A program made the position numbers and the translations under genes. From Moniliella sp. 'wahieum' (taxonomy: Eukaryota), in contig RSEE01000021.1 in assembly GCA_003971905.1 (NCBI GenBank), positions 248,001 through 312,000 of the forward strand: DNA of 64,000 nucleotides, written 5' to 3'. Positions 8,271 through 59,788 of this stretch are shown here, piece by piece. Each line of letters starts with the position of its first letter. Position 1 is the first letter of the stretch. A model generated the notes under the pieces. That model saw only the letters and a program-made list of their open reading frames with translations. It ran no database searches and was not told where the DNA came from.

Positions 8271-9554
8271 TCTGTTTTGTGTGGCAGGGACTCGGTGGCC
8301 GGCACATGATTTGCAGAATGTAAAATGTCTAGGGCCGGAGGACTGCAGGCCGGGTGGCACATAGTGGCACGGGCCTGGATCGGCACGGGCGGCAGAGTGG
8401 CAAGAGGGGCAGCAGAGTTACTAGTGACTATGGTGACGCTAGTGACGCGTGACAAGGTCGTATGACACTGGTGCGACGTGTGTAGAAGAAGACGACGGCG
8501 ATCATTAATCGCGGTTCATCGCTGAGCGTTGAAGCTTGAAATTCCTGAAACTTGAAGCTTAAAGGCGCTGAAGCTCAGCAGACAGCAGCGCCCAGTCGGT
8601 GCTTGAGGCTTGTAACATGTATTCGGTCATCTACAGCCCATCGCCAGCGGCAGCCGCGCTGCGAACAGAGAGGGCCGCGCGGGGCCAAGAACGGCCAAGC
8701 GAGGGGCGGAGGGGAGTGTTGGTAGCGGGTGTACTTTAAGCGAAAAAGGGTGCACCAGGGTGCTCCATGCTGCCTAGCTTGGCATGGCCTGTGGCGTGGC
8801 ATGCGCAGTAAGTAGCATCATCGATGCATCATGCGTCAATATGCAATGTTCAACGTTCATGATTATCGATTATCTCGATTATCGACTGTCGATCAATGAT
8901 GCATGACGCGTGACGGAGGGCCACCGATCGCCCACACGCCGTCTGCCCCGGGCGCATTCGGCTCGGCTGGCCCATCTCAAATCCGGCCGTTCTTCGTGCG
9001 TGCCCCCGCAGCCCATCGGCCATCGCACATACGCGGTGCATATCCGTCTCCCATCCCGCCTTCTGGCCTGCCCACCCGGCCTAAGCGAAGCGATGCGTGA
9101 AGCTCGAGCAAACCTTGACAGGAGACGAGACACTGGCAGCTGCTCCGTGGTTCGGCAGCATCCCACATTACACGCATCACACATTGCATAACACACGTCA
9201 CATGTCACTGACCACACGTCACGCGTCACGCGTCTCTCGGCACGCGTCAGGCATTTTGCCTGGCTGGCTGGCGTAGCCGCTCGGCTTGCAAGTGCCGCGT
9301 CCAGACCTGCACGCCCGCCCTTCCCCCGCACACCCCTCCCGTGTTCTTGCGTTTTCTTCCTCCTCCTCCTTCTTCGCCGCCGCCTCCTCCCCTTCCTCGT
9401 TCTCCGTCCGGCCGTGGTGCGCATTCGACTTGCCTGCACATCGCGTCCTTCTTCCCCTCGCCAGTCAACCGACCCACCCCCGCACCACACGCGTCTCAGC
9501 TGGGTGTGACTACCTGCGCCTTGTTGCAACGCCCTCTCGACACGCGCCTCGGCC

Positions 9555-12500
9555 ATGCCCTCGGCCGTTGCCCATGCGGCTGCCTCTGGACTAGCACACA
9601 ACGACCGCTCCCCCTCCTCACCCCCTCCTCCTCCTCCGCCACCGCCGCCACAACGCGTCCCTCCGCCGCAAGCCCCACCCACTTCCTCACCGTCCTTCCC
9701 CGCCCGAGTACGTCTCTGCATGCCTCCACCCTCAAATGCTGTGGCTACTACGTTGAATGCTTACCCTTTTCCCTCTCCAGACTCTGTGTCCTCCTCACCC
9801 AAGCCTCTCCCCCATATTCCCGGGCCGCCGGCGCAGGCAAGACCGCCTCCTCTCACCTCGCACGGGCTGCCTCCTGCCGCTCTTCCCCACCCTGGGTGGA
9901 CAGCTGCATGCGATTGCGCGCGAGTACGGCCTACCCTCTATCGGCGGCATCAGCATCTACCTCGTGGACGATGGCTTTGGTGCATTGGGCCCATGTGTCG
10001 GTGACAGCGTGTGGCGCGCCATGTGGGCACCCTACTTTGGCCCGTATCCTCATCCTCATTCCCCTCCGCCCCCACCCAACCTGTACGACGACCTCGTCCT
10101 CCCGTCACAGCACCGGCCCATAGTCGCGCGCATCGAATGGGCCGTTGAGCCCAGCCGTGCTCCGTGGTGGCCTGCTTGGCTCGACAACGCTGTGGCGCGC
10201 GCCACTGGCTCCCCCCGGACTGCCGTGCTCGATCCCCACCTGGGCCATGTTGGGAAGCTGGCTCCCAGACCCCTAGCCTTACTCGCTCCGGTGGCTCTCG
10301 TTCTGCCACTTGCAGCCCCACCTGGCGCTCCACTGTATCTAGAGAACATGCCACCACCTCACCCCTTCTCTCCCGCACCGCCCCGCCCCACTAAGAGCGA
10401 CGACGCCATGCCCTCATTCGCCGCCACCCGCACCCGCTCCCTGTCTGTGCAGGAGCGGCACGCCCTGTCACGATCCCCTAATACCTCTACCCTCTTTCGC
10501 CGCCCCCAAGGGAAAGGCCCCCCAATTCTTCGCCACTCCCCGCCGTTCCACTACCGGCCTCCAACGCTACTACTGCCCCGGTGCCGTCACCACCTTCGCC
10601 GGAGCCATCTCTTCGTCAATCCAACCTACCTGGTTGGAGCAACCTCAGACTTGCTCATCTCCTCGCTTTCCATCTCTATTACCCCCTTCCATGTCGGCGT
10701 CCTCCTTGGCTCTTTCCCTGTCAGGGATGGCAATTGAAATGGAACCCAAGAGCTGCCATGAAGCTGCGGTGGACACCTACACCACCCTGGCCCCACCCGG
10801 CCCCTGCAGCCTTCGCACTGCCAAAGGGAGCAGTAGCAGCCACTCGTCCACTCTGCTCCCCTACTCCCCAGCCCCACTGGAGGTGCCTAATTCGTCGCTG
10901 TTGTCCCCCCTGCAGCTCGATAAGTCTCAATTTCCCTCGAGGGAGGAGCAGGAACCGATGCCGGAGGAGCAGGAACCGGTCATGGAGGATAAAGGAGAGG
11001 AAAGGGGCCAAGCATCGCTGAGGATACTCCAACCCGGTGCCGTCCACCCTCCGAGGACCCATCTCACTTTGAGGCGCCTAACTCTCTTGGCGTGGACTTG
11101 TCCGAACCTGCAGCTGTTCGTCCAGACGAGGTGCAGGGGAACATGACGACTTCGTTTAGTGAATGGAGCTTGCCTACATCCAGTCTTTGACTGCGGAGGA
11201 CCAGGCGGCGGTGGCGGAGATCATCGGCCACCCCCTTCTCCCACAAAGAGTGAGTGTTGCTCTTCAGGAGGTCACATCGGATCTGCCTACACCACCCCAG
11301 TCGGACCCTGGTTCACCGTCCGGGTACGAATTGCTGTACGGGAACCCTAGCGCAGGCGCCCTTGCGCCTTTCCAGAAGCCTCCCTACCTTTCGTCTCCCC
11401 CGTCGAACGCGGTTCCACCCTTGGACCCTTCTTGTTTTCTATTAATCGTCGTCGGGAGGTTTCAGTTCTCCACCCCATGTCACCTCCAGTCACTGCTGCC
11501 AGCGAGGCTTTCTCGGATGGGCCTGCCGTCTCCCCACCTGCAGAGTCATCTCTCACCACGCCCAAGGGGGTGAGATCCCCAACGGCAGCGATCCAGAGAA
11601 TCTCTCAACCCGAAATCACACCCGCTCTGACTGAACGTACTGAGCTGCGTCCCTCAATTGCTGAGGACGCCAACCACACCGGACCCGACTTGTTACGTTC
11701 GAGCGAATCATCTACCTGGGACCGTGTGATGCAAGCGCTCAACAATCCCTGGCATCCGTCGGACGATACCGGTACTTCCATTCTCCCGCAACCCTCGGAC
11801 CGGAGCTCAGTATCGGCCTCAAGCCAAGAAAAGGAGAATGTGACCGTGATGCGGGCGACGTCCGACCCCACTTGACCTTCCCAACTAACAAGGATGTTCG
11901 TATTGTCGCAAACAGGACCCAGCCGGCCCATACCCAGCCTGCACGGCAGCAGGATTCTTCCCTAGTGCAACTGAACGTCGCTCTCTCATCCTCTACTTCT
12001 GAGGTTGTGACTCAAGCCGTTTCACCACTGCCTGAGAGGGACATGGGTCTCCCCTCGGCTGCACCAAACGGGCAGGATGAATCAATCTCGCCGAGTCTTA
12101 GCTTATCGCCCGTGGATACCCCAAGGCCGCATGGGTCGCGTTCCGGGCATTTCTCGGTTTCGAATCGCGATTCGGGCCATTTGGATGACCTGCCCGATTG
12201 CCAGCAGCCCTTGTCTCGTGTTTCTCCATCAACCAGCCCGCGGGCGTGGTCGCATCCAAGTACCCAGGACACCCTGTTGAGCAAGAGCGCAAGCCAAGGG
12301 AGTGACTCGACTCAGTTTACCACCCGATCGATCCAGGACGTGGATGAATCGACAACGTCGGTACTGCCTTCGGGCTTGACATCGGGCTTGGCATCCGATA
12401 GCGAGAACCTTGAAGCATCTACACCTTCCTTAAGAGAGACGATGCCTACGATGGGTAAGGAGGGCAAGAAACCTCACGACCAAGGTGAGGGGGAACATGA

Positions 12501-14332
12501 CATTTTGTACGGGCCCAAAGACCTTTCCCCCCCTGTCGTCGGCGTCAATGTGCCCCCTCCTCTCCCCCTAGGCCAGGCGCATCCGGTGCCCCTATCCACT
12601 CTGCAGTCAAAATCCCCTGTTCCCCTGCCGAGCCCCGCTCGGGTCGATATTCGCCAAATGATCTGCGCGCCCCTTCTTCGGCCCTCCCTACGCGAGAGAG
12701 AGAGCAGAGCGTGGCCCCGATCCCATCATCAACGGATGCATCCACGTCCACTCGAAGGGAAGTGATGCTGACGGCGCAGCGTGCTTTGCTTGGGATCCTC
12801 GATCGTCAAGGCTATTGTTCGTATTTTCTACTAATTTCTTGCGATGCATATCCATAAAGCTGACTTTGTTTTTGGTTTTGCTTGTGCAGTTCACGAAGTC
12901 ACCCGAGCGTGGGGAGCCAATCGAGCGGATACAACAGTTCCTCCCAGCGAATCCCCTCACTCTCTTCACAATGCCAACTTGAAGCAAACGAAAGGTTTGG
13001 GGGAGGACCAGCACGGCGAAGACCCACGCCTTGGCCTGGGCCTGATTTGGGATAGCCAAGAGCGATCTGGGCACCCTGCCGCACTAGGGCTAGACCATGC
13101 CGTGTTTGTCACGCCAACGATTAACTCGACAATGCCTCCATCCGCGCCTGAATCGCGTACTTCCTCGGACGATCATACTCGCCGCCCCATCCCCTTGTCT
13201 CTCATTGGCGACAACGATATGGAATCGCCCCTGGACAACATTATGGATCACGCTGCTGCGCCTCCCAATCCGGTTGGGATTCAGCACAGTAGTACCTTGT
13301 CCCTAGAGCCAGACCATTCTTCTGCGCGGCCGTCAGCGACTCATGGCTCACCTGGGACGCCATCGCCCGCAAAAATGGCATCTCCTCTAATCTCTCCCCT
13401 TCCGTTCACGTGGAAATGGGCCGCGCTGTTCCTTCTTCTCCCGACGAGGGTCTCCAACGCACCCCACCTTGAGCCATACGATACCTAAGCCCCAAGAGTT
13501 GTACGCTACTCTTCTCGGTACCAGTGTTATGGACATGCACTCTGGTCCTATCAAGCAGCAGACCCGCCTTGACTCCCTTGCAAGCAAAGGGCTTCCCATT
13601 CTACCCGTGGGGAAAGAAAAATATGGCTTTCCTTCCTCTCCTTCTCTCAACCTCGATCCGGTTCCCAGATCTGGCAATAGGTGGCCCAATTCCTTGCCTC
13701 GCCGCTCCCCTCGTCTCCTGAGATGGGGACTTGGAATACAACCGCGGCAAGGCGACCCGCTACGTCCCACTCCTCCGCCAAATCTCCGCCCCCTCCGCAT
13801 CGCGACCGAGCCACCCAGCCACCTCAGGGCTCCCCATCACGCCACAGAGGAACCAAGGCACGCCATGGGGTATGCCCGTCCCTGCGATGACCCTCTCTGC
13901 GCCCACGACACCGCTCGTGGGCAGCGAAACCCCTCTGCCACCACCAGCCAGCCGAGACGGGGAGCCGCTTCGTTCGATGCTCTTACAGGGCACGGCAAGT
14001 AGCCACAATCACCTCCCACTCCCAGCGCGGCCCAGCGTGACATGGAGTCCGACGGTCATTGACCGAGTCCGGGCGCCGAGTAGTGGAGCGGTCGGCAAGG
14101 CGTCAAAGCACCTTCTTCCGCCACCTCTTCCCCCTCTGTTGCCTCTTCGTCCCGCGCCCGACGCGCTTTGGCCGCAGCTGCCTCCTCTCTCCGCCGCACC
14201 CATACCGGTCCCCTTAGTCCCCACTTGCCCTCCAGCAAGTTGGACACGGCTGCGCCGCCCTCGGCCGCATCCCCAAGCGTGTCTCCGCGCCTGGCGTTAG
14301 CACGCATGCCAATGCCGCGCAAACCCTCGTAG
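9555..14332 (+). CDS. Long Pro/Ser-rich uncharacterised protein with a short globular-looking N-terminal block (frameshifted; probable intron ~12782-12888)
   Basis: Block GCLLPLFPTLGGQLHAIAREYGLPSIGGISIYLVDD...GPCVGDSVWRAMW...PIVARIEWAVEPSRAPWWPAWL resembles uncharacterised basidiomycete proteins from memory. A chain of overlapping + strand S/P-rich ORFs follows. Limits approximate. Confidence 0.55.

Positions 14333-14401: not shown

Positions 14402-14453
<52 letters not shown>
14402..14453. repeat. (CT)n microsatellite, about 26 units
   Basis: Directly visible in sequence. Confidence 0.97.
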
Positions 14454-14873: not shown

Positions 14874-15800
14874 TGGAAACGCACACCCCTGTAGTTTAGG
14901 GGTACAACCCCGTGGACGGCCAATCGGAGCAACGTATAGATAAGGCTGTACGTCAGTGGCATCAGAGCCTAGCTGAACCCAGAGCGGATGTAGAGGCGAG
15001 GGAGAGACCCTCCAATTTGAGTGGCTGCCTGTGGGTGCAAAAGCCGCAGAGCTCCGACCCTCCGAGGAAGGGGAAGCGTCCCTAGGGCGTCAGACCCGTT
15101 GAAGGGGCCTCAAAACTCCGGGGTAACGTGGTTACCGTCTGGGGCGTTACTATACTCGACGCGCTGTCATGCATCTAATGGGGGGAATCAGACGGAGTCC
15201 TACTAACGAAGAGTAAGCGATATTACTGAGAGTAGCCGCGGCTTGCAGGGTATAACTGACGTGAGTCGTGCATTCGTAAGGGGGGTATGGGAACAGGAGA
15301 TGAACAGGATGAACCGCGGTTGAACAGGGTGAACAGAAGGATGATCAGTACGTACCACAGCGAGCAAGTCCAATAGTAGACGCGGCTACTTATATACAAA
15401 AGGAACCAGGCCTCGCAACTAAGTGCCTCAGGCCTCATGATGCATGACAGGCACTATAACAAACAGAATGTAAGAGAACTTTCCAGAGAAGTACAGACTA
15501 AGATATACAGCCCGTGCTCTCAAAGGCGCTGTCACTACGCAATCGGGCGCAGCAGGTAAAGGGTGCTGTTACGACCAGTGGGCGCGATGGGCACAAAAAG
15601 CATCCCATCTCGTACCAATGAGTCCATATGCGATCAGGGCGGTGGGCGGAGGGGATGATATACTACTGCAGCATGAATAAAAGGTGTCCGCTGGCTCTCT
15701 CTCGCTAATCAAACGGTACTTACGCGTATGTAGATGAGTCGTCTACGACATGCTGATCTCTGCGTCCGGAAATAGTCGGAACGCCCCGTAACCTGTAACA
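14874..15800. mobile_element. Solo-LTR-like element, copy A (left end truncated)
   Basis: Colinear with 18857-19455, 24401-25848 and the reverse complement of 28937-29700. Ends ...CGCCCCGTAACCTGTAACA followed by GGCCA. Confidence 0.7.
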
Positions 15801-16426
15801 GGCCATATATGCTATACCTCTTTTCGCGCCATATATATGGCCTAGATGAGAGTTGTATATATACCAACACAAGTAATACGTGCTGTGGCCAACCATATTC
15901 ATCTCTGCTTCCGTCGGTGCCATGCAGTGGGCCGCGCCAGCATTCGTGCATCGTCAAGACCGAAGTCATATATATGTTGAACGTTGGTGTGGCCAACATA
16001 TGTACATCGTGCATCATGCATCAACACGTGCGTTGCGGCCTTTGTTGAAGTTATATAGGGTTAGCATCTGAGGAGGCGGTGAGATCTGAGTAGGGAAAGA
16101 GTTCAAGTTGAGCGCTGTGGGATGTTGGCGCAGCCGAAGAAGCAATAAGCGCCCGATATGACATGTGACAGGTGAAAGAGAGGCTGATAATACACGCTTA
16201 TACGGCTCGTGGCCTATGGTAGTGCCGGCGTGGTGGATGGCCCGGCTGCGCACTTCCAAAATGCAGCCATCAACCAGAGGCAAGGCGCAAAGTAGATATA
16301 GAATGATGCCAAATGGGTATCTGCACCAACAACCCCCCAACAAACCCATCCTCCAACCCCACAACAATCCTCTCCTCCAGCCTCCCCAGTCCCTCCCCTT
16401 CTCCACACCCTCCTTCCCCCCTTGCC

Positions 16427-18209
16427 ATGCCGAATACGGCAATTGGCATCGATCTCGGCACTACCTTCTCGCGCGCTGCTGTTTGGCAGAACGACCGGGC
16501 TAAGGTCATTCCCAACCACCTGGGCAACAGCACCACCCCCTCCTGTGTAGCCTTCAACGAACGCGAGCGCCTCATGGGAGAGGCCGCCATTTCCCAGATC
16601 GGGATGAACGTGGACAACACGGTGTTTGACGTCAAGCGACTCATCGGTCGCCGGTTTGATGATAAGGTGGTCCAGGAGGGCATGAAGCATTGGCCATTCA
16701 AGGTGATTAACGTCGACGGTCAGCCGATCATTCAAATTGAGTACAAGGAAAAGACCAAGCAGTTCACCCCCGAGGAAATCACGGCCATGATGCTAGTCCA
16801 CATGCGCAAGACGGCCGAAATGTACCTTGACGCACCAGTACAGAACGCCGTGGTGACTGTGCCTGCCTATTTCGACAAGATGCAACGTGAGGCTACGAAG
16901 GACGCCTGCACCATTGCGGGTCTTCCCGTCTTGCGCATTATCAACGAGCCAACTGCCGCCGCCATGGCGTACGGGTTGGACACATTGACTGATACTGAGC
17001 GCACCGTCCTCACATTTAATCTGGGTGTCCGTACCTTTGACGTGTCCCTGCTGGCTATGCGCTCAGGAGAGTTCCAAGTTTTGGCCACCAACGGTGACAC
17101 CCACCTCGGTGGCGAGGACTTTGACACTCGTCTGGTCGAGCATTGCATCGAGATATTCGAACGCAAAAGCAAGCCGAATAAGGGTCTCAGATCCAACGCT
17201 CGTGCCATTCGCCGTCTCCGCACTGCATGCGAGGTCGCAAAGTGCAACCTCTCTTCCGTCACCCATACCGCGATCGACATCGGCTATCTGCACGAAGGGA
17301 TCGACTTTGAGTGTGGCATCACCCGAAGCCGCTTTGAAGAGATGTGCGACGACTTGTTTCGCGGTATCATTGGCTCTCTCGAGAAGGTCTTGAGGGACGG
17401 CAGAGTCAAGAAGAGACAGGTCAACCCAATTGTTATGGGGGAGGTTCAACACGGATTCCCCGTGTGCAACGTATTGTCTCTGAATTCTTCAACGGACGCG
17501 ACCTCAACAAGTCGATCAACCCGGATGAAGTTGTTGCCGTTGGAGCTGCCATCCAGGCTGCCATCCTCTCGGGCCACCTTACGAAGAAAACAGAGGACCT
17601 GAATAACCCCTTGTCTTTGGGAACGAGCGTGGATGGGAATTTGTTCGATCCACTGATCAAGCGCAATACGAAGACTGTACCTCCAAAAACGACCAAAGTC
17701 CATGTTACTGTTGATGACAATCAGGACGGAATCATGATCGATGAGGCTAAGACTACGATGACGTTTTATGTGGACGCCAATTCGATCCTGACGATGTCAA
17801 CAAATCACAACAGATCGTCATCAAAAATAATGGTCGTCTGTCAAAGCAGGACATTACGCGCATGGTATCGGACGCGAAGCAGTACAAGGCGGATGATGAA
17901 GCTGAACGCGCACGAATTAGGGCCAAAACTGACCTCCAGTCGTACGCACAGCGCCTGCGCGATGAACCGGCCATGAGGGGCAACCTCAATAATCGCGAAA
18001 AGAAGGCGCTGGAAACGGCCATCAAGGAGACACTTAAATGGGTGGATGACTCAGACGAGGTTTCTAAGGATGTGTATGAGGATAAGCAGAAGGAACTGGA
18101 GGATATGGCCCACCGCCCTCAGAAGCGGGCTGAAAATCGTGGCCAGCGAAGAGGCCACCATCGTGGGCCACGAGGAGGGCGAGGCCGCCCGCGGGCGAAA
18201 CAAGGGTGA
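16427..18209 (+). pseudogene. Hsp70 copy 1, degenerate
   Basis: [22 protein letters not shown] and THLGGEDFD present. Phosphate-2 motif DLGGGTFD is changed to NLGVRTFD, linker LLDVV is missing, and the SBD has an 87-nt in-frame deletion (~17742) and a ~19-nt frameshifting deletion (~17799). Confidence 0.8.
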
Positions 18210-18856
18210 ACCCCTCTCCCCCCCCTTCATCTGAATGATGCAGGCCCTATCGATCGTTTCACGTCCATTTGGAAGAGTGGTCCAGGCCCTGGATTGGGCA
18301 CAATCATCGAAGGTGTCCGCTGTCTTCCCTAACTTTTGCTTCGCGTCGCAAAAGGTCAAACCCCTCATGGAAGCAACAATTACTATGCCCTACAAGCTGC
18401 TTTGATCATGCTCTTCTTCTATCCCATCCTGATCTGATTCCACCCACCATCTACTGTTACAAGATAACCGCGGTCCCACGAATCCCCTTGGGCCAGTGGT
18501 TATGAGATGAGTGCATTCATCATCCTTTTGAATCAAGTTGCTTGCATCCAGAGACCACAGCATCACAGCCTTCCCAACACGGTTGATGCAATATAGATGT
18601 TACGGGACGCGTCAGATCTGATCCGAGCTGGTTCAACCTGAGGCCCGTCTACTGTACCCATGCCCCCCAAAGAGCTCGTTCCCAATCCCCAACTATAACG
18701 TGCGACCATGCTGTGGCGCCTCCATTGTAAGCCGCCCGTGTAGGAGACACCGCTGGCGCATTCCTCTGTTCTTTTTCCTATCACCGCTGCCAGGGCCTAC
18801 TCCCATGTCTCAATCACCACCCCACTGCATGAAGCTCTAAATAGTTGAAAAGGCCA

Positions 18857-19455
18857 TGTCATGAGGGGAGTCCTCCCGAGGTGAAACCCACACCCCTGTA
18901 TTAGTTTATTAGAGGTATAAACGTTATTAAACCGTGGACGGTCAATCGGAGCAACGTACGGCGGTACGTCTGTGGCTTCCGATCCTAGCTGAACGCCGCG
19001 CTGAACGCTGAACGTGCTGAATCCTGAAGCCCGAGCGGGTGTAGAGGCAAGGGAGAGACCCTCCAGGTTGGGTGGCGTCTGCGTGCAAAGGGCGCTCTGA
19101 CCCTCCGCCGGAGGAAGGAGCAACGTACGTAGGTCGTCAGATCCATTGAAGTGGCCCCGAAACTCCGGGGTACCGTGGTTACCTGCTGGGACGTTACCAC
19201 ACTCGACGCGCTGTATTGGGCCGAATCAGACGGAGCCCTAACGAAGAGCGAGCGCTATACTGAGAGTAACCGCGGCTTGCAGCCTGTAACCGACGTGAGT
19301 CGTGCATTCGTAAGGGGGGTATAGAAGGTGGTACAGGAAACTGGATGCACTGCTTGAGTCAATACGTATACCACAGCGAGCAAGCATTATAGTAGACAGG
19401 GCTACTTATATACTACAAAAGGAAGGGCTGGAACGCCCCGTAACCTGCTGTAACA
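18857..19455. mobile_element. Solo-LTR-like element, copy B (internally deleted)
   Basis: GGCCA|TGTCATGAGGGG... start and ...GCCCCGTAACCTGCTGTAACA end. Lacks the segment matching ~15405-15775 of copy A. Confidence 0.72.
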
Positions 19456-19677
19456 CTGAGGCCATATATATGCTATACCTCTTTTCGCATCATATATGGC
19501 CTATATGAGAGTTGTATATACCAATAGTGTAGTACGTGTTGGTCAACTTGATATCGGGAGATAGAGAGATGAAGGCTAGAAATCATATTCATCTCATTGT
19601 GGATGCTTCCGTCGATGCCCAGAAGGCAGTGGGCCGCGCCAGCATTCGTCCATCGTCAAGACCAATGTCATAATATA

Positions 19678-21403
19678 CGAGGAGACCCCCGGGCCTACGG
19701 CCCGGTCAGCTGGGGCTTCGCCCCAGCTGCCGTTCTCCCTTCGCCACCGTAGCCACCGTTCCACCGTCGCCAACACCGACATCTCTTAGTTCTATATCGG
19801 AGGGTCCACCAAAAAGTGTGCAACCCTACTGCTCCCCGACCTGGGCTGGCTGCGCCAATCATCGGGCATATGACAGAGTCGCGTCGACGGGTCCCTCCCA
19901 TACCTTACAAGGGGAGCGTCGGTGGCGCAATAGTAACCGTGGCACAAGGCAGAGTGGTGGTGCAAGGAGGAGATATGGAGAGCAATTGAGGGGGGAGGCA
20001 AGGGGGGACAAGAAGTGGAGGGGGACAAAGGGTCGGTGGAACAAGGGAAGGGTTGGAGCAAGGATGATCGGTAGACCGGGGGGCTCTCACCCAGGTTGAT
20101 GGGGTACAATAGGTGAAGGACAACTCACGGTAGTTTCGGGTTTGGGCTGTTTGGTGGCTTGAATCCCCCGTACGGTGGCAAGGCTGCGTATGCGCCGGAT
20201 TGAGGGTAGTAGCGTGTCTGAAGCCTCCGGGGCCTTTTTAGGGACGGAAAACACTGCCAGAGCTGAAGCTGGGAAGGGCCAGCAGTCGACGTAGCTGTGA
20301 AAGTAACCCACGCGATATGCTGCGGTACGGGGAACCGACGCGGCTGATGGACGGCTCGCGCGACTGGGCAGATGGAAAGCTGGAGGACGAGGTTGGATGA
20401 TGAAGATGGTGCAGCTAAGTGAAGACGAGAGGTTGCCTGTATTACTGAATCAATTGGCTGGAAACGTTCAGGAGTTGGACAGGAAAGGCGGGAAGGGACG
20501 AGAACGGAAGGTGGGATAAAGGATTCCCATCAATCAAGGATGCTGACTGTTGGTTGGCCCCTTTTTGGTAACCCCCTTCTGTCTAAGCCCCATCACACTG
20601 GGGTAGATGTTGACAGAGCGAAGCAGACGAAGCTGCTACAGAGTGCGACATGGGAGTACTCGCGATCCATGGATCAGCTGCAAAGTAACCGTCAGACAAG
20701 GCGTGAAGGAAAAGTTCAAGCACCATCTGAATTGAAGGGACGGAGACAGGAGAGAGAGATGCAAAGATGTTGACAGAGCGAAACAGAGGCGAAGCTGCTA
20801 GAATGGTTCAGCTGCAAAGCAGCCTTCAGACAAAGCGTGAAGGCAAAGTGGTGGGCCATAAGTCTTCAGGTAACATCTGAAGGGAAAAGGAGACAGAAGA
20901 GAGAGAAGGGGGACGAAGCGAGCAGGGCGCGCGCGCCCTGCGAGCGGAACTCTTCCGCCCGGTTAAGTGAGCGTCACCGATCCACCGAGGGCCGTGCAAG
21001 GGAACCCCAGCACTACCCTCCAACAGAAGCAAGCGAAGGCTGCAAAGGCACTAAGAATGTCATCCGATAGCACTTCCTCGTATAGAAATAATATCCCCTT
21101 CTTCGTTCTGGCTGCAGGGGGCGTAGAACGTGGCAAGGGGCAGCTGATGTAAAAAGTGCACAGGGCTAAAGGAGGAATAATATAACTTAGGGATACATTG
21201 GACGTTTTGGTGGCCATATTGTTGTGTGGATGAATTGTGTCCTACACTGGTGACATGCGACCAGTGGCACTGCAGCAATAGTGCTCTTGTTTTTCTTCTT
21301 CTTGTTCCTATTATACCTGCCCATGGGAGCATAGCTCTTGTGGGAGCTATGCAGTGAATGTTATGACTTTGCCACCTCCATCCCCAGTTAGTAACTGCAC
21401 AAT
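19678..21403 (-). mobile_element. ~1.7 kb composite insertion upstream of Hsp70 copy 2, with a Helitron-like 3' terminus
   Basis: Interrupts sequence that is contiguous upstream of copies 1 and 3. Two perfect GC hairpins (19689-19705, 19707-19729) precede CTCG|T on the minus strand. Shares a 27-nt GGTGG-repeat block with 24964-25199. 5' end not identified. Confidence 0.55.
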
Positions 21404-21840
21404 CCATATGTACATCACGGGCGGTGGGGCCTCTGTTGTTGGTGCTATATAGGGTTAGCAGCTGAGGAAGTGGTGAGAAGGGAATGATTTGAACGCTGTG
21501 TTATGTTGGCGCAGCCGAAGATTGAAGCAATAAGCGCCAGATATGATAGGTGAAAGAGGCTGGTACGCTTGTAGGGCCCGTGGCCTTGCTAGTGCCGGCG
21601 TGATGAATGGCCCGGCTGTGCACATCCAATGCAGCCATCAACCATAGGCGAGGCGCAAAGTATATTATAATGAGGCGAAATGGGCATCTGCACCCACCCC
21701 CCACCAACCCCCACGGCTCCGACCCCCAACAATCCTCTCCTCCAACAACTCCACAACAATCCTCTCCTCCAGCCTGCCAACAATCCTCTCCTTCAGCCTC
21801 CCATAACAGTCCCCTTCTCCACACTCCTTCCCCCCTTGCC

Positions 21841-23741
21841 ATGTCGAACAAGGCAATTGGCATCGATCTCGGCACTACCTTCTCGTGCGTTGCCGTTTGG
21901 CAAAAGGACCGGGCTAACGTCATTCCCAACCACCTGGGCAACCGCACCACCCCCTCCTGTGTAGCCTTCAACGAACGCGAGCGCCTCATGGGAGAGGCTG
22001 CCAGTAACCAGATCGGGATGAACGTGGACAACACGGTGTTTGACGCCAAGCGACTCATCGGTCGCCGGTTTGATGATGAGGTGGTCCAGAAGGACATGAA
22101 GCATTGGCCATTCAAGGTGATTAACGTCGACGGTCAGCCGATCATCCAAGTTGAGTACAAGAAAGAGACCAAGAAGTTCACCCCCGAGGAAATCTCGGCC
22201 ATGGTGCTAAACCACATGCGCGAGACGGCCGAAGAGTTCCTTGGCGCAAAAGTACAGGACGCCGTGGTGACTGTGCCTGCCTATTTCGACAACATGCAAC
22301 GCCAGGCGACCAAGGACGCTGCTACCATTGCAGGTCTCCGAGTCTTGCGCATCATCAACGAGCCGACTGCCGCCGCCATGGCGTACGGGTTGGACACATT
22401 GACTGAGACTGAGAACACCGTCCTCATCTTTGATTTGGGTGGTGGTACCTTTGACGTGTCCCTACTGAAGATGCGCACCGGAGAGTTCCAAGTTTTGGCC
22501 ACCAACGGTGACACCCACCTCGGTGGTGAGGACTTTGACACTCGTCTGGTCGAGCATTTCATCAAGATATTCGAACGCAAAAACCCGAATCAGGATCTCA
22601 GATCCAGCCCTCGTGCCATTCGCCGTCTCCGTACTGCATGCCAGCGCGTAAAGTGCACCCTCTCTTCTGCCACCCATGCCTCGATCGACATCGACTCTCT
22701 GCACGGAGGAATCGACTTTCAATGTGGCATTAGTCGAAGCCGCTTTGAAGAGATGTGCGACGACTTATTTCGCTGTATCATTGGCCCTCTCGAGATGGTC
22801 CTGAGGGACGGCGAAGTCAAGAAGAGACAGGTCAACGCAATTGTTATGGTGGGCGGTTCAACGAGGATTCCCCGTGTGCAACGTATTGTCTCTGAATTCT
22901 TTAACGGGCGCGACCTCAACAAGTCGATCAACCCGGATGAGGCTGTTGCCGTTGGAGCGGCCATCCAGGCTGCCATCCTCTCGGGTCACCTTACTAAGAA
23001 AACAAAGAACCTGAACTGCTAGACGTGGTCCCCTTGTCTCTGGGAACGAGCTTGAGAGGGAAGTTTTTCGATCCACTGATCAAGCGCAACACGGCTGTGC
23101 CTACAAAAACGTCCAAAGTCTATGTTACTATGGAAGACAATCAGGAAGGATTCACTATCGATGCGTACGAGGGAGAGCGGTCGCTTATTGCGGACAATCG
23201 CTTTCTCGGAAAGTTTAACCTTGATGGCATCCCACCCAAGCCCCGTGGCGAGGCTGAAACTACGGTAACGTTTTATGTGGACGCCAACTCGATCCTGACG
23301 ATGTCAGCCGTCGACATGCAGACGAAAAAGTCACAACAGATCGTCCTCAAAAATAATGGTCGTCTGTCAAAGCAGGACATTGCGCGCATGGTATCGGAGG
23401 CGAAGAAGTACAAGGCGGATGATGAAGCTGAACGCGCCCGAATTAAGGCCAAAACTGACCTCCAGTTGTACGCACAGCGCCTACGCAATGAGCCGGCCAT
23501 GAGGGGCAACCTCAATAATCGCGAAAAGAAGGCGCTGGAAACGGCCATCAAGGAAACACTTAAATGGGTGGATGACTCAGACGAGGTTTCTAAGGATGTG
23601 TATGAGGATAAGCAGAAGGAAGTAGAGGCTATTGCCCCCCCTCAGAACCAGGCTGAGAATCGTGGGCGACGAGGCCGCCCTCGTGGGCAGCGAGAAGGTC
23701 GCAAGGCTGAACCCCTCTCCCCCACCCCTTCATCGGAATGA
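21841..23741 (+). CDS. Atypical cytosolic-type Hsp70, copy 2 (one 1-nt frameshift at ~23014, probably a sequencing error)
   Basis: NBD motifs intact ([40 protein letters not shown]); SBD and lid follow in ORF 23025-23741. Frameshift is ctgaactg versus ctgaaactg in copy 3. No EEVD. Confidence 0.9.
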
Positions 23742-24963
23742 TGCTGGTCCTATCGATAGCTTGACGTCCTTTTGGAAGAGTGGTCCAGGCACTGGATTGG
23801 TCACAGTCATCCAAGGTTTCCGCCGTTTCCCCTATATTTCCTTCGCGTCGCAAGGTCAAACCACTCGTGGAAGCAACTGCTCTCACCTTACAGGCTGCTT
23901 TGATCATGCCCTTCTTCTATCCCATCCTGATCTGATTCCACCCACCATCTACTGTCACAAGATAACCGCGGTCCCACGGATCCCCTTGGGTCTGTGGTTA
24001 TGAGACGAGTGCATTCATCATCCTTTTGAATTTGGTTGCTTGGATAGTAGGGATCGGAATGCTTTAGAATCCTCCTTCGCAGAGACCACAGAGCATCACA
24101 GCTTCCCCAACACGGTTGATGCAATATAGATGTTACGGGACGCGTCAGATCTGATCCGAGCTGGTTCAACCTGAGGCCCGTCTACTGTACCCATGCCCCA
24201 CAAAGAGCTCGTTCCCAATCCCCAACTAAAACGTGTGACCATGCTGTGGTGCCTCCACACTGTTCTCGAATTGTAAGCCGTCCGTGTAGGAGACACCGCT
24301 GGCGCATTCCTCTGTTCTTTCCTATCACCGCTGCCCGGGCCTACTCCCATGCCTCGATCACCACCCCACTGCATGAAGCACTAAATAGTTGAAAAGGCCA
24401 TGTCATGAGGGAAGTCCTCCCGAGGTGAAACCCACACCCCTGTAGTTTATTAGAGGTATATATACCGTGGACGGCCAATCGGAGCAACGTACGGCGTCTG
24501 GCTTCAGATCCTAGCTGAACGGCGCGCTGAACGTTGAACGTTGAACGTACGTTGAAACCCGAGCATGTGTAGAGGCAAGGGAGAAACCCTCCAGGTTGGG
24601 TGGCGTCTGCGTGCAAAGGGCGCAGCTCTGACCCTCCGTCGGAGGAAGGAGCAACGTACGTCGGTCGTCAGATCCATTGAAGGGGCTTCGAAACTCCGGA
24701 GTATAACGTAGTTACCTGTTGGGGTGTTACTACACTCGACGCGCTGTGGCGGAATCAGACGGAGTCCTAACGAAGAGCAAGCGCTATTATATACTGAGAG
24801 TAACCGCGGCTTGCAGTGTAACCGACGTGAGTCGTATATTCGTAAGGGGGGTATAGAAGGTGGGACATGATGAACAGAATGAACGCGCAGTTAAACGGAG
24901 TGAACCGAAGGATGGTCGATACGTACCACAGCGAGCAAGTCTTATGGTAGACAGGGCTACTTA

Positions 24964-25199
24964 TCTCTCTTTTATAAAAGAGCGGCGGCTTGTTCGCCAG
25001 CTGCAGTTTCTGACACTTCATGCCACCTGGCACGTTCCAGGCCCAGGCCGATGCACATGGGTGAAAAATTCGCCCCTCCAGCGTGGAACGGTGGACCGGT
25101 GGAACGGTGGACCGGTGGAACGGTGGCTACGGTGGCGAAGGTGACCGGTGGAACGGTGGCTAAGGTGGCGACGGTGCACCAGCACCAAGCTGCTTTCTA
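24964..25199 (+). mobile_element. ~236-bp non-autonomous Helitron-like insertion
   Basis: Inserted at A|T within CTACTTA|TATAC of copies A and B. Starts TC, no TSD, internal GGTGGAAC/GGTGGCTAC repeats, short hairpin GGTGC-ACCA-GCACC before a CTA end. Confidence 0.55.
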
Positions 25200-25398
25200 T
25201 AATACAAAATGAATCGGCCTCTCAAGTGTCTCATGATCATGACAGAAACAGAATGTGGGAGAACTTTCCAGAGAGGTACAGACTACTAAGATACGCAACC
25301 CATGCTCTCAAAGGCGCTGACACTACGCAATCGGGCGCAGCAGTTAAAGGGTGCTGCCGATAAGACCAGTGTGGGGCGCGATGGGCATAAAAAACATG

Positions 25399-25648
25399 TG
25401 TAGCGACGCGTGAAGGGCTCTGACCTGGAGACACCTAGTCTCTAAACCACAGACGATCAGCGAGTAGGAATCAAGTAACGAGGTGAGCGAGAAGAAGGGA
25501 AAGGGGGAAGGAGAGGTGGTGGCGAAGAGGACAGAGCAAGCAGTGGACAGGAATGTACACCTGGCCTGCTGGCCTGCGCGCGGCAACTCTAGGGTCTAGC
25601 ATTCACATCTACGGATCAGGCGAGGCACCGGTGGGTGACGTGGCAACA
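25399..25648. mobile_element. 250-bp solo LTR of a second family, nested in copy C
   Basis: TGTAGCGACG...CGTGGCAACA (TG..CA, 8/10 inverted termini), flanked by ACATG/ACATC. Absent from copy A. Confidence 0.75.
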
Positions 25649-26548
25649 ACATCACATCGTATGCCGATGAGCCATGCGACCATGGCGAGCCGCGGATGAC
25701 ATATCTGCAGCCTGAATAAAAATGTCCGCTGGCTCTCTCTCGCGAATCAAACGGTACTTACGCGTATTTGGTTGAGCCGTCTACGACATGCTTGTCTCTA
25801 ATACATACTACGTCAGGAGGTAACCAGAACGCCCCGTAACCTGTACCAGGCCATACATGCCACCACGCACCATATATGGCCAATAGATGAGAGTTGCATA
25901 TACCAAGTAATACGTGCTGTGGCCAACTTGTTATCAGGAGACAGAGAGATGAAGGCTAGAAATCATATTCATCTCAGTGTGGATGCTTCCGTCGGTGCCA
26001 GGCAGTGGGCCGCGCCAGCATTCGTGCGTCGTCAAGCTTCAAGACCGAAGTCATATACGTGTTGAACGTTGGTGGCCATATGTACATCGTGCATCAGGCA
26101 TCAACACGTGCGTTGCGGCCTTTGTTGAAGTTATATAGGGTTAGCATCTGAGGAGGCGGTGAGATCTGAGAAGGGAACGAGTTCATCCACGTTGAACGCT
26201 GTGGGATGTTGGCGCAGCCGAAGAAGCAATAAGCGCCCGATATGATAGGTGAAAGAGAGGCTGCTAATAGGTTTCTAGGGATCGCGGCCTATGGTAGTGG
26301 CGGCGTGGTGGATGGCCCGGCTGCGCACTTCCAATGCAGCCATCAACCATCAGATGCGAGGCGCAAAGTATATATAGAAATGATGCGAAATGGGCATCGG
26401 CACCAACCCCCCACCAATCCCTCCTCCAACCCCGCAACAGTCCTCTCCCCCAACCCCGCAACAACAGTCCTCTCCCCCAACCCCGCAACAGTCCTCTACT
26501 CCAATCTCCCCACAGTCCCCTTCTGCACGCCCTCCCTCCCCTCTTGCC

Positions 26549-28430
<1,882 letters not shown>

Positions 28431-28936
28431 ACCCCCCTCCCCCCCTTTCCTCTGAAAGATGCTGGCCCTATCGATAGCTGGCGTCCTTCTGAAGGAGTGG
28501 TCCAGGTACTGGATTTTGGTCACAGTCATCCAAGGTGTCCGCCGTTTCCCCTGCATTTTCCTTCGCGTCGCAAGGTCAAACCCCTCGTGGAAGCAACTAT
28601 TACTATCGCCCTACAAGCTGCTTTGATCATGCTCTTCTTCTATCCCATCCTGATCTGATTCCACCCACCATCTACTGTCACAGATAATCGGTCCCACGGA
28701 TCCCCTTGGGTCAATGGTTATGAGCTGAGTGCATTCATGATCCTTTTGGAATTTCGTTGCTTGCATAGGGATCGGAATGCTTTAGAAGCCTCCTTCGCAG
28801 AGACCACAGCATCACAGCGTCCCCAACACGGTTGATGACGTTGATGCAATAGAGATGTTTTACGAGCCGTGTCGATCTGCTCCCAACTGGTTCAACCTGA
28901 GAGGCGCCCGTCTGCTGTACCCAAGCCCTACAAACT

Positions 28937-29700
28937 GTTACGGGGCGCTTCGGTTATCTCCAGACTCTGAGCCCCGCACGTCATAGACATTTCAGCCCAA
29001 CTTGCGTCAGTCCGGTTAGACTAGCGAGAGAGCCAGTCGACACTGCCTTTTCCATGTTGCGGATACCAACCGCGGTCCGCCATGGTCGCATGGGCTTATC
29101 GGTACGATGCTTTGTGCCCATTGCGGCGAGTCTTTTGCTGGAAGAACCCTTCCTGCTGCGCCCGACTATGCAGCGCCAGCGCCTTTGAGAGCAAGGGCCT
29201 GTGCCCTCTCTGGAAAGTGCCCCGCATTCTGTCCATAATACCTGTCATGGGGCACTTGAGGCCTGGTTCCTTCTGTATATACGCAGCCATGTCCAGGGCT
29301 TTTGCTAGTAGCTGTGGTCCTGGACGACCATCCGGTCTTTGGTCTCCCCCACTACCCGTTCCTCCCTCGCCCTTGCACCTTCTACCACCCTTACCGCTTA
29401 CGAATTTACATCTTACGTCGAGTACGCTGCAAGCCGAGTAACTTCGGAGCCCCTGGACCTCGTCAACTAGTCTAACGACCTACGTACGCGGCTCCTACTA
29501 CCTCGGAGGCTCTGAGCTGCGGCCTTTGCACGTAGGCAGCCACCCAAACTAGAGGCTTTCTCCCTGCATCTCTACTAACATCCGCTCGGTTTAACCATCA
29601 GGATATGAAGCATGACCTAACGTACCAGACCGATTGGCCTCTGTGCAAGGGTTTAACGTTTATACCCCTTAGCTACAGGGGAGGCCCCACCTCGGGACCC
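28937..29700. mobile_element. Solo-LTR-like element, copy D, inverted and more diverged
   Basis: Starts TGTTACGGGGCG. Its reverse complement is colinear with copy A (shared blocks CTGGCTCTCTC, TGCTCTCAAAGGCGCTG, CTTTCCAGAGA, AAGGAACCAGGCCTC, CGGCTTGCAG, GGCCAATCGG). Confidence 0.72.
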
Positions 29701-30086: not shown

Positions 30087-31890
30087 TCAAACGATCAGAG
30101 CGGGGGTTTCGTTGCACTGCCCAGGACGCAGCGCGCAATACAACGGTTGCAGTGGCCGAGCGGCCACGCCGCGGTCGGCCATGCGGAAGCGCACGTCATG
30201 CAAGCGTGGCAAGGCCAGAGTAAGGTTACGCGTCCCCTCCGTCCCCTCACTTTGGTACGACGCACCAGTCCAAAACACTTCGGCCGCCGAGGCAGCACGG
30301 GGCCAGATGGTGGCATCAAGCGAAGGTCCATCCACCGTCTCGGACCACAACGCAGCTTCGCCACCCAGGATACGCTCCTTGCCCCCCGGTACGGTGCTGG
30401 TACCATTGTACGGATCAAATTCGTACATCTTGCTCCATGACACGTACGGGCACCAGTAGGTCGCGTTGCCCGGTGCGCCAGTCACCCACGCACCGGCGGT
30501 GCCGCAGTCGAGATAAAAGTAATCCGACGAGGCTACAATCACCTTGACGCCCGGATTGGCCTCCAGGATCTGGGTCGCGGCCGAGGCGGTGGTCCAGGCT
30601 TCGACGATCGTGCCGTTGCGCAGCGACTTGCCCGTCTCGGGAAAGGTAACTGCCATCTCTTCCCACACCATCGGCGTCTTGCCCAGTTTTTCCAGGGCAT
30701 CATGAGCGGTGTTGAGAAAGGGTTTGACGCCGGTTGCGTCAATGTCGGTTGCGTTGGTCACATTGTAGCAACCCAGATTGACCTCATCGCCCCCGGTGCC
30801 AAAGAGCGGGCTGGGGAAAAGCGGGGCCACCTTCTGGAGCAAGCCAGTGATGTACTGGCTTACGGCGGGATGGTTGAGCTTGAGCGAGCCTGGCGGCGGC
30901 TCGTTGGCCACCGTCCACCACTCAGCTTCGCCCTCGCACTGAAGCAGATCGGGGCAAAGTCCTTGACCCCTTCGTACTCGTGTCCCGGCATGTCGATCTC
31001 GACGTTGACGTTGATTCCGCGTTCGGTAGCATAGGCAACCACACTGGCTACATCGGCCCGGGAGTACGTCAAGCCTGGGCTTGAGGCACCCTTTTGTGCC
31101 AAGACGGAATAGTTGCCATCCAGCTCAAGCGGGAAGCTTTGCGAGTCGGAAATGTGCCAGTGAAACTATAGAAGTAACCATGGAGAGCGTAACGGGGTTC
31201 AGTTAGGTGGGGGGGAAGGTTGGGAGAACGTGACAGGCGTATAATACGTACTTGGTTGAGCTTGACGAGAGACATCGTGTCGAGCTGGTGCTGAATTTCT
31301 GCGATTGAATAATAGTTCGCCCCGTGTCGAGCAGAAAACCGCGGTAGGGGAATGCTGGTTTGTCCTGGATGGAATAGGGAACGTTGGGGATGTACTTGGA
31401 GGAGCCATCGGGGAGGGCGAAAACCAGTTGCTGGAAGGTAGTCAAACCCCGCAGGGCGCCCAGGGCCGTGTTGGCCGATACAATCGCTGCCGTGCCATCG
31501 GCGGGTACGGTGAGGTTGTACACCTCGTCGTACTTTTCGGGCAGCTTGGACAATTCTCCAGCGAGGGAAGAAGGATTGGAGGGAAGGTGAACCTGCACAG
31601 AGGTGAGGGTGGGCGCGGTGTGAAGGTGTGCCGCCTGGCTAGCTCCCCGGTCGACGACGAGGGCAAGCATGTTGGAGGCCTTGATCTCGGACACGATGCG
31701 TTGGGCGCATTTTGGAGATCAGCGGGTGCGCCGGAAGGAAGGTGGATGGCGAGATGGGCCGCATCGAGGCGGACCGACTGCTTGCCCGAGTGGACGGAAG
31801 CAGGCTGCGGCCAAAGAGCATGGGCTGTGGGCAGCATGTGCAGCACGGCGAACGCCGAGGCGAGGGTGAGGGGCCATGAGGGAGGATCAT
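30087..31890 (-). CDS. Secreted beta-N-acetylhexosaminidase, GH20 (intron 31166-31251; frameshifted)
   Basis: Signal-like N-terminus before LWPQP, then DKPAFPYRGFLLDTGR, KLNQ|FHWHISDSQSFP, EIDMPGH, catalytic GGDE, ILGGEAALWSE and IWPRAASAAEVFW. Confidence 0.93.
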
Positions 31891-59053: not shown

Positions 59054-59788
59054 CTAGAGGATGATGCATCCGCCGCAGCAGCCGGAACTGTGGGCGCCAT
59101 CGTCGGTTTGCATGGGCTGCATGCCACCGGCAATGCCTGCGCCCGCAGGCATCATCCCACCCGCTGTTCCCGCACCGGAGGTGGCGCCGACGCCCGCTCC
59201 CAGGCCGTACCCTGGGCCGGCGGTCCCCGTGCCCAGGTGACCGGCTGTCAGTTCGCGGTTGAAGCGGCGGATCTCGCGGACCAAGTTGTAGAACGCCTCG
59301 TCCACATTGATCCGCTGCTTGGCACTCGTCTCGGTGAACCGGCAGCCAAAGAGCTTGGCCAGTTCCCGGCCTTCGTGCGACCCAACCTGCCGCTCGTACT
59401 CCAGGTCGCACTTGTTGGCAACAACAACGACGGGGAAACGGTCCTTGTCCTTGACACGCAGGATCTGTTGGTGGAACGTACTAATCTCGTCAAACGAGCT
59501 GCGGCTGGTGATCGAGTAGACCAGCAGGAAGCCCTCTCCGGTGCGCATGTACTGCTCACGCATAGCCGAGTACTCTTCCTGGCCCGCAGTGTCGAGCACG
59601 TCGAGGAGGGCGACCTCGTCGTCAATGACGCATTGCTTGCGGTACGAGTCCTCGATGGTGGGGTCGTACTCGTCGACAAAGTGGGACTGGATGAACTGGA
59701 TGGTGAGAGCGCTCTTTCCCACACCGCCGCCGCCAACGACAACGAGCTTGTACTCGCGCAAGAACTGGGCGGGCATGACGCCAGACAT
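59054..59788 (-). CDS. RAS1: Ras GTPase, Ras1-type, 244 aa, intronless
   Basis: [33 protein letters not shown] and C-terminal GCCGGCIIL (palmitoylation Cys plus CaaX). Confidence 0.97.

Follow-up and report, generated by a model that had tools for sequence, protein, structure and literature searches.

The window analysed here is a stretch of 64,000 nucleotides (nt) from Moniliella sp. 'wahieum' (GenBank assembly GCA_003971905.1, contig RSEE01000021.1, positions 248,001 to 312,000 of the forward strand; positions below are counted from its first letter), and it contains a tandem array of three Hsp70-like coding regions. Self-BLAST and direct-repeat families showed that a unit of 4.0–5.5 kb is repeated directly three times between about 14876 and 28934, with successive starts about 5.41 and 4.70 kb apart. 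Every unit contains a single Hsp70-like coding region, read from the + strand, and the ATG codons lie at 16427, 21841 and 26549. The coding sequences (CDSs) of the three copies are 90.0–91.5% identical in pairwise comparison and their 200-nt flanks 83–90% identical, while the homology between units continues for about 0.8 kb on the upstream side and about 1.2 kb on the downstream side. No fourth Hsp70 copy was found in the window by tblastn with the consensus of the three copies, and self-BLAST detected no part of the array repeated elsewhere in it. The whole repeat region, comprising the three units and an inverted partial spacer copy at its right end, spans 14876–29589 (no strand assigned; self-BLAST pairs and direct-repeat families). 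An earlier note, made from the letters of this DNA, had described three head-to-tail, intronless Hsp70 copies that share upstream and 3′ flanks and sit between ordinary genes. This layout was confirmed: open reading frame (ORF) reading and tblastn recovered the copies, self-BLAST recovered the shared flanks, alignment to canonical Hsp70 proteins required no intron break, and the neighbouring genes encode a threonyl-tRNA synthetase (ThrRS), a glycoside hydrolase family 20 (GH20) hexosaminidase, SYF2, a Ras-type GTPase and SPT23/MGA2.

Three such similar units might be an artefact of assembly, as the same note had allowed, with haplotypes that were collapsed or expanded, or a repeat put together wrongly, posing as three loci, and indel errors are demonstrable in this assembly (see below). 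However, the units differ by 8.5–10% in their CDSs and by 10–17% in their flanks, which is beyond what haplotypes or duplicates would show, and private indels of 12, 19, 87 and about 1735 nt set them apart. The units are therefore separate loci and not an assembly duplicate, and we regard an artefactual origin of the array as extremely improbable.

The coding regions were assigned to the Hsp70 family by several searches. The Pfam HSP70 profile (PF00012) matched the nucleotide-binding domain (NBD) of copy 2 with an E-value of 5.6e-166 (profile positions 1–380) and its substrate-binding domain (SBD) with 8.4e-49 (positions 382–590), and fragments of copies 1 and 3 scored 5.5e-124 and 2e-99. In a PDB sequence search, the best solved structures were Hsc70 (E 5.6e-164) and, for the SBD, HSPA1A (E 4e-55); both scored above BiP, mitochondrial Hsp70, DnaK and SSB1, which reached only 2e-34. 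The nearest relatives among 5.8 billion proteins were canonical fungal SSA/HSS1 proteins, at no more than 69% identity for the NBD and 56% for the SBD, and the best SBD matches included Tilletia species. HMMER, run exhaustively against 1.84 billion cluster representatives, recovered no closer relative. Neither the exact proteins of the copy 2 ORFs nor that of the Ras ORF in the window occur in a 15-billion-sequence collection. The source genome is thus probably unannotated or missing there, so that the lack of a close relative carries less weight and close relatives in unsampled species are possible. No published description of this Hsp70 lineage was found in the open-access literature searched.

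A careful maximum-likelihood tree was built from 32 rows, namely the three copies, 27 canonical proteins and two plant BiP outgroups, with SSB and SSC left out. The three copies grouped together with 100/100 support, and their stem measures 1.13 changes per column, compared with 0.01–0.2 for canonical branches. This clade was nested within the Ustilaginomycotina SSA group (90/97) and was split from the BiP outgroup with 100/100 support. Cytosolic SSA/Hsc70 proteins are among the slowest-evolving proteins; the consensus of the three copies is only 58–64% identical to 26 canonical proteins (an amino-acid divergence of 36–42%), whereas the fungal members of that set are 79–99.8% identical to one another. 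The proposal that the copies are derived from SSA agrees with their position in the tree, inside the SSA group and apart from BiP, and their description as lineage-specific agrees with the 69% and 56% ceilings on identity.

Despite this divergence, the majority consensus of the three copies is an intact ORF of 631 codons. The open frame, together with the finding that all length differences from SSA are in frame and that no lesion is common to two or more copies, points to a selected ancestor. On these grounds, the stem lineage is best described as a selected functional gene and not as a drifting pseudogene.

We next consider which parts of the Hsp70 design were kept, taking as reference the columns at which 26 canonical proteins show no variation. 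In the consensus, the NBD is changed at 37 of 227 such columns (190 kept), the interdomain linker at 3 of 7 (including a Leu to Lys change), SBD-beta at 22 of 68 (46 kept), many of them to charged residues, and the lid at 6 of 19. The ATPase motifs, including NPDEAVA, are retained in the consensus and in copies 2 and 3 (alignment to 1yuw_A); we take these to be the ATP-binding and catalytic core of Hsp70. Elsewhere in the NBD, canonical YFNDSQ is replaced by YFDKMQ and ERAKRT by EVAKCN (QRVKCT in copy 2). The linker sequence is NLKLLDV, compared with DLLLLDV in the Tilletia protein, and the first SBD loop has TSVDGKL in place of IETAGGV. In the SBD pocket, canonical TYADNQPGVLIQVY became TMDDNQEGFIIDAY, a further SBD segment changed from PRGVPQIEVTFD to PRGEAKTTVTFY, and one residue was deleted before GRLS. 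The altered linker and SBD-beta positions presumably line the cleft. At the C-terminus, the canonical G/P-rich tail with its acidic end has given way to an RG-rich stretch of about 25 residues, in which all three copies and the consensus finish, and an EEVD-like end was found in none of their frames.

The invariant-column counts and the replaced tail uphold the earlier view that linker, peptide cleft and tail depart together from canonical SSA. What the copies share with canonical SSA/Hsc70 proteins is membership of the SSA clade and the motifs for ATP binding and hydrolysis (copy 1 excepted, with NLGVR in its phosphate loop). By its predicted sequence, the array protein is thus an SSA-derived Hsp70 that nevertheless lies outside SSA norms in its conservation, its linker and peptide-binding loops, and its lack of an EEVD-type end. 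From these features we infer that the protein would still cycle ATP, that a more polar cleft would give it a different client range, and that tetratricopeptide repeat (TPR) co-chaperones such as Sti1/Hop would be unable to dock via an EEVD end. Coupling between the domains may possibly be weakened. The RG-rich tail is the single feature that would suggest the roles put forward in the earlier note, namely work with RNA or ribonucleoprotein (RNP) or an interaction with a host.

As assembled, none of the three Hsp70 copies has an open full-length frame. Copy 1 (16427–18209, + strand) is a pseudogene with several deletions: 1 nt after 17438, 12 nt after 17603, which takes out part of the interdomain linker, 87 nt in SBD-beta after 17742, and 19 nt after 17801. 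Its phosphate loop is also altered, to NLGVR, compared with DLGGG in copies 2 and 3. Copy 2 (21841–23741, +) is the best preserved and consists of two ORFs, 21841–23022 (NBD, 393 amino acids (aa)) and 22998–23741 (SBD, lid and tail; 247 aa), split by its sole frameshift. This is one base missing from a run of A (A3 to A2) at 23015–23016 (+), where copy 2 has CTGAA-CTG and copy 3 has CTGAAACTG. In addition, a 19-nt deletion after 23701 alters the last ~10 residues of copy 2. A programmed frameshift or a small intron at the copy 2 break was considered and ruled out, because conserved residues abut the site on both sides. Copy 3 (26549–28430, +) has nine CDS deletions of 1–2 nt (after 26696, 26712, 26783, 26892, 26996, 27011, 27179, 28041 and 28295) and a tenth deletion in the tail, after 28442. 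The majority of these lie outside homopolymer runs, and seven fall within 480 nt (26696–27179).

To judge such small lesions, we used the flanking genes as a control for assembly error, looking for frameshifts inside conserved motifs across about 3.5 kb of conserved flanking CDS. In the ThrRS gene, a conserved N-terminal motif is interrupted at 5660–5670 (− strand): residues 81–103 of the main frame align to residues 12–34 of the human enzyme (4ttv_A), and residues 87–153 of a second frame align to residues 27–92. The two frames are separated by 11 nt, which is too short for an intron. The GH20 gene is broken twice on the − strand. At 31317, one base serves both the Arg codon that ends ..LLDTGR and the Asn codon that begins NYYS.., since CGAAC is present where CGAAAC is needed (A3 to A2), and Pfam profile positions 13–35 continue in the other frame. 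At 30954–30955, at a run of C, the Pfam match leaves one frame with profile position 111 (last base 30956) and resumes in another with position 112 (first base 30953). Two further frame changes in the ThrRS and GH20 genes are ordinary introns of 83–100 nt with GT..AG borders, and the Ras (161 profile positions) and SYF2 genes are uninterrupted. Two adjacent housekeeping-type pseudogenes are far less likely than assembly error. These frameshifts therefore indicate that the assembly makes 1-nt errors, at least partly in short homopolymers, at a rate of 3 per about 3.5 kb (0.85 per kb), at least one of the three being A3 to A2. A second ThrRS frameshift near 4409, suspected from a motif, was not confirmed by Pfam and PDB searches, and supposed upstream exons of that gene gave no PDB match.

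At the control rate, each Hsp70 copy would be expected to carry 1.6 frameshifts. The single break in copy 2 is of the same A3 to A2 class as the GH20 error and within the control rate, and is therefore probably an assembly artefact. Copy 3 exceeds the rate (P = 0.0054 for nine frameshifts, P = 0.0024 for ten), and the 12-, 19- and 87-nt deletions of copy 1 differ from the type of error seen in the control genes. Both the excess of deletions in copy 3 and the large deletions in copy 1 look real. The earlier note had spoken of three genes, a count that has to be reduced: copy 1 is dead, copy 3 is probably dying, and copy 2 looks live only provided that its frameshift arose in assembly. More generally, with about one frameshift error per kb of CDS in this assembly, the labels 'intact gene' and 'pseudogene' call for read-level confirmation.

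The same control raises the question of whether all 1–2-nt indels in the array are assembly errors, perhaps made worse by mis-mapping of reads among the repeats, such that copies 2 and 3 would both be intact and expressed and only copy 1 damaged. Errors of 1 nt are proven in the flanking housekeeping genes, the small indels of copy 3 are all deletions and seven of them are clustered, and copy 3 resembles a constrained gene in its ratio of non-synonymous to synonymous substitution rates (dN/dS, 0.46), its third-position bias and its avoidance of invariant sites (see below). Against this stand the 9–10 frameshifts of copy 3 where 1.6 are expected, the position of most of its deletions off homopolymers, unlike the clearest control error, and its losses at invariant columns, which are double those of copy 2. 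We consider it rather unlikely that two copies are intact.

Next, we examined selection on the copies. Pairwise dN/dS was 0.45–0.56 at a dS of 0.15–0.16, which is about equal to the divergence of the flanks. Relative to the consensus, dN/dS was 0.71 for copy 1, 0.48 for copy 2 and 0.46 for copy 3. Among 239 unique substitutions, 83 were synonymous, compared with a fraction of 0.266 expected under neutrality (P = 0.003), and 0–1 were nonsense changes, compared with 7.2 expected (P = 0.006). No copy has a stop codon in the consensus frame; there is one single-step candidate, in copy 3. The nonsense deficit, the synonymous excess and a dN/dS below 1 point to some purifying selection since the duplications. 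The copies were therefore under some purifying selection for much of the time after duplication, far weaker than that on canonical Hsp70. The earlier note had named a dN/dS of about 1 throughout as a sign of neutral decay: copy 1 approaches such values (0.71–0.79), and the other copies do not (0.33–0.66).

Constraint was then scored for each copy on the 253 columns at which 27 canonical proteins are invariant and the consensus agrees with them, with expectations derived from the unique non-synonymous changes. Copy 2 has changed 5 of these columns (16.4 expected; P = 9e-5), copy 3 has changed 11 (19.2 expected; P = 0.0095) and copy 1 has changed 19 (26.5 expected; P = 0.038), three of them in the phosphate loop. 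Unique substitutions at first, second and third codon positions numbered 16/19/33 in copy 2 (P = 0.026), with third positions enriched, 20/23/34 in copy 3 (P = 0.12) and 38/25/31 in copy 1 (P = 0.26), where they were evenly spread. Lesions and invariant-column losses rank the copies in the same order of preservation: copy 2, copy 3, copy 1.

Substitutions were not scattered independently along the copies. Within 21600–23900 (copy 2 coordinates, as for the following positions), the sites at which one copy is the odd one out run in long mosaic blocks, with a different copy standing apart in each segment; for example, copy 1 is the odd one at 21 of 26 sites in 22200–22399, and copy 2 at 20 of 29 sites in 22600–22799. 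This pattern in the aligned copies indicates gene conversion or unequal exchange among them. No mutation bias of the kind left by repeat-induced point mutation (RIP) or at CpG was found among the copies (rate 0.066 at CpG and 0.089 elsewhere). Among unique substitutions counted on the coding strand, G>A changes outnumbered C>T about twofold (21/17/19 versus 9/8/8 in copies 1/2/3), and this strand asymmetry was independent of CpG or RIP context.

Our preferred explanation, to which we assign a probability of about 0.58, is that the array is a fast-evolving, lineage-specific offshoot of SSA in birth-and-death evolution, in which copy 2 is probably live, copy 3 probably dying and copy 1 dead. A cytosolic Hsp70 confined to one lineage would have branched off the SSA/Hsc70 line in a smut-like fungus (Ustilaginomycotina) and diverged very rapidly thereafter, with its linker, client loops and pocket, and tail altered and its ATP-binding motifs kept. 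The ancestor of the three copies would have been a working gene, and its unit would have been duplicated twice, at a dS of about 0.15, after which the copies would have swapped segments by gene conversion. Copy 2 would probably still be a gene today because its 1-nt break resembles those in the flanking housekeeping genes. The tandem copies and decaying members bear out the suggestion, made in the earlier note, of a birth-and-death family.

Several observations weigh against this explanation. The placement in a tree of so long a branch is uncertain, and the 90/97 support for its position within the SSA group was not starred. The error rate is based on three control events only, and whether the copy 2 deletion is an error or real was judged from the assembled sequence and the flanking controls alone. 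The dN/dS of copy 3 is no higher than that of copy 2, which is awkward given its ten deletions; these deletions may be either very recent or partly local assembly errors. Gene conversion smears every per-copy count. A dN/dS of about 0.5, far above the canonical Hsp70 level, is compatible with weak constraint throughout. Copy 2 itself is changed at the adenine-side ERAKR motif (QRVKC) and has the 19-nt tail deletion. Finally, matches to a heat-shock element consensus (at most one mismatch) numbered 9 in the window, compared with 10.6 expected, and the nearest lie 950–1290 nt upstream of the ATGs.

Some of these points would also fit a burst of tandem duplication that left nothing but pseudogenes, copy 2 included, with no full-length chaperone expressed. 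Every copy is broken in frame as assembled, pairwise dN/dS is about ten times the canonical Hsp70 level, copy 2 combines its tail deletion with five changed invariant columns, including the ERAKR motif, and heat-shock elements are no more frequent in the window than by chance. However, a single A3 to A2 frameshift like that of the GH20 gene, in 1.9 kb, is below the control rate, copy 2 has spared invariant sites and favoured third codon positions in its substitutions, and the consensus frame is free of nonsense substitutions in all copies. A wholly dead array is thus possible, although we hold it to be unlikely.

The spacers between the copies bear on how the units multiplied. A non-coding piece of 0.4–0.5 kb, which is part of the tandem unit, precedes each Hsp70 copy in direct orientation, at 14876–15405 (+; 73–75% identity by self-BLAST, no Pfam domain in its ORFs), 19024–19424 (+; the unit-level match begins at 18883) and 24427–24964 (+). 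An inverted partial copy lies at the right end of the array (28937–29589, −; 65–75% identity by self-BLAST) and starts exactly where the unit homology stops. Its matches pair 15384–15792 with 29288–28937 (65%), 19031–19141 with 29589–29471 (75%) and 25655–25840 with 29109–28937 (69%). This inverted copy may be the trace of an inversion or may represent a dispersed element present a second time. Unit 2 also has a private insert of 1.7 kb upstream of copy 2 (19678–21412, no strand assigned; self-BLAST), which is non-coding, has no Pfam domain and holds internal direct repeats at 20605–20906 with a spacing of ~150 nt (134–162 nt apart).

In the earlier note, the spacer was called solo-LTR-like (resembling a lone long terminal repeat) and the region a transposon relic, which would make the Hsp70 genes transposon cargo, or residents of a transposon-relic island, multiplied by transposition and not by unequal crossing-over. 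The recurrence of the spacer piece, which precedes every copy and appears once more in inverted orientation at the right end, the insert in unit 2, and a G+C content of 0.53–0.55 in the array compared with about 0.58–0.65 in its flanks would suit this account. However, none of the 27 spacer ORFs has a transposase, reverse transcriptase, integrase or other transposon-related Pfam domain, the sole match at E ≤ 0.05 being weak and unrelated (E 0.043). The copies are strictly head-to-tail and whole units are mutually homologous, the repeated spacer is confined to the array within the window, and the RIP-like or CpG mutation bias is absent. Nor did the array yield an Rfam match or a tRNA. The direct repeats in the spacers would suffice for unequal crossing-over. 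The transposon labels were therefore dropped, and we judge multiplication by transposition to be very unlikely.

The region immediately upstream of each copy has its own repeat. A 24-nt C/A/T-rich tandem repeat was detected by Tandem Repeats Finder just upstream of the copy 1 ATG (16330–16379, +; 2.1 copies), and the same repeat precedes copy 2 (21717–21821, +; 3.5–3.7 copies) and copy 3 (26403–26518, +; 4.8 copies). An upstream ATG (ATGGGyATC, giving MGIC or MGIG) is conserved before every copy (regions 16313–16426, 21679–21840 and 26390–26548) and is followed by this repeat, which corresponds to eight codons and ranges from 2.1 to 4.8 copies. In copies 1 and 3 the upstream ATG shares the frame of the Hsp70 ORF, whereas in copy 2 it does not; C-rich homopolymers lie in between. 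This region could be a CT-rich leader or promoter, or could encode an N-terminal extension rich in P/T/Q/S with a possible acylation signal.

A bolder version of the story would make copy 2, and perhaps copy 3, an undescribed kind of cytosolic Hsp70 of one smut-like lineage, an ATP-driven clamp with a charged client cleft, an altered linker and, in place of the EEVD docking end, an RG/RGG-like tail that possibly leads to RNA, RNP granules or the nucleus. It might carry an N-terminal extension running from the upstream ATG (MGIC.., possible acylation signal) into the eight-residue P/T/Q/S repeats, and the array would be a fast-turnover family under diversifying pressure, for example from host interaction, and not a graveyard. 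We regard this as speculative and decidedly improbable.

The preferred explanation, an SSA offshoot in birth-and-death evolution, can be compared with known Hsp70 systems. Canonical fungal SSA/HSS1 proteins (Tilletia, Meira, Acaromyces, Ustilago) have the same Pfam family, domain order (NBD, linker, SBD-beta, helical lid), N-terminus position and ATP-binding motifs as the copies. They differ from the copies in the identity gap given above (58–64% compared with 79–99.8%) and in a G/P-rich tail with an EEVD/EEID end where the copies are RG-rich. In the parts of the Ascomycota survey drawn on here, SSA genes include taxon-specific duplicates and putative pseudogenes, attributed to stochastic retention and loss, and concerted evolution is listed as a keyword; the SSA paralogues are described as functionally equivalent and little diverged, with a mean identity of 81.7 ± 4.8% (Kominek et al. 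2013, PMC3879978). As far as those parts go, the likeness to our array lies in tandem duplication, a gene-conversion mosaic and decaying copies here, whereas this lineage diverged strongly before duplication and comes from a basidiomycete-like genome outside the survey (PMC3879978).

Two further systems also lack the EEVD end. The T1 lineage of plant Hsp70T proteins, in the sections of its description used here, is cytosolic, has variable C-termini in place of EEVD, forms tandem clusters and has barely detectable transcripts (Chen et al. 2023, PMC10687569). That lineage is of independent origin and is described as nearer to full-length cytosolic Hsp70; going by the same sections, the array differs further in that cleft and linker are also altered and the tail is swapped for an RG-rich one, not truncated (PMC10687569). 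TbHsp70.c of Trypanosoma brucei is lineage-specific and cytosolic/nuclear, without GGMP repeats and EEVD, and has an atypical linker and acidic pocket residues; in the account available of it, it is an active ATPase, is stimulated by a J-protein and does not bind Sti1 (PMC8269394). It shows the same set of departures with an unrelated origin, and since it works with them, such a design can work. On that account, TbHsp70.c is a conserved kinetoplastid gene with biochemistry, whereas our array is decaying and known from sequence (PMC8269394).

If the frame was kept open while a third of the residues changed, the array would be a natural experiment on how far the Hsp70 design can be re-tuned, including 22 of 68 client-domain invariants and the docking end. 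It would also give the fungi a counterpart of the EEVD-less Hsp70s known from plants and trypanosomes. With most of the array decaying, the significance of the find is moderate as the evidence stands, and the function of its product is putative.

A few further features of the window were recorded. A perfect (CT)26 microsatellite lies at 14402–14453, just left of the array, and a 33-nt G-rich tandem repeat with 8/16-nt sub-periods lies at 25083–25176, in the spacer before copy 3. Left of the array, 9200–14300 (+) is a succession of long ORFs that lie in different frames and match no Pfam profile, and owing to assembly frameshift errors the exon structure of this gene is unreadable from the ORFs alone. 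The Ras-type GTPase gene (59057–59788, −) is an intact single exon of 244 aa that matches the Ras profile over positions 1–161 of 162 and has a CaaX-like C-terminus.

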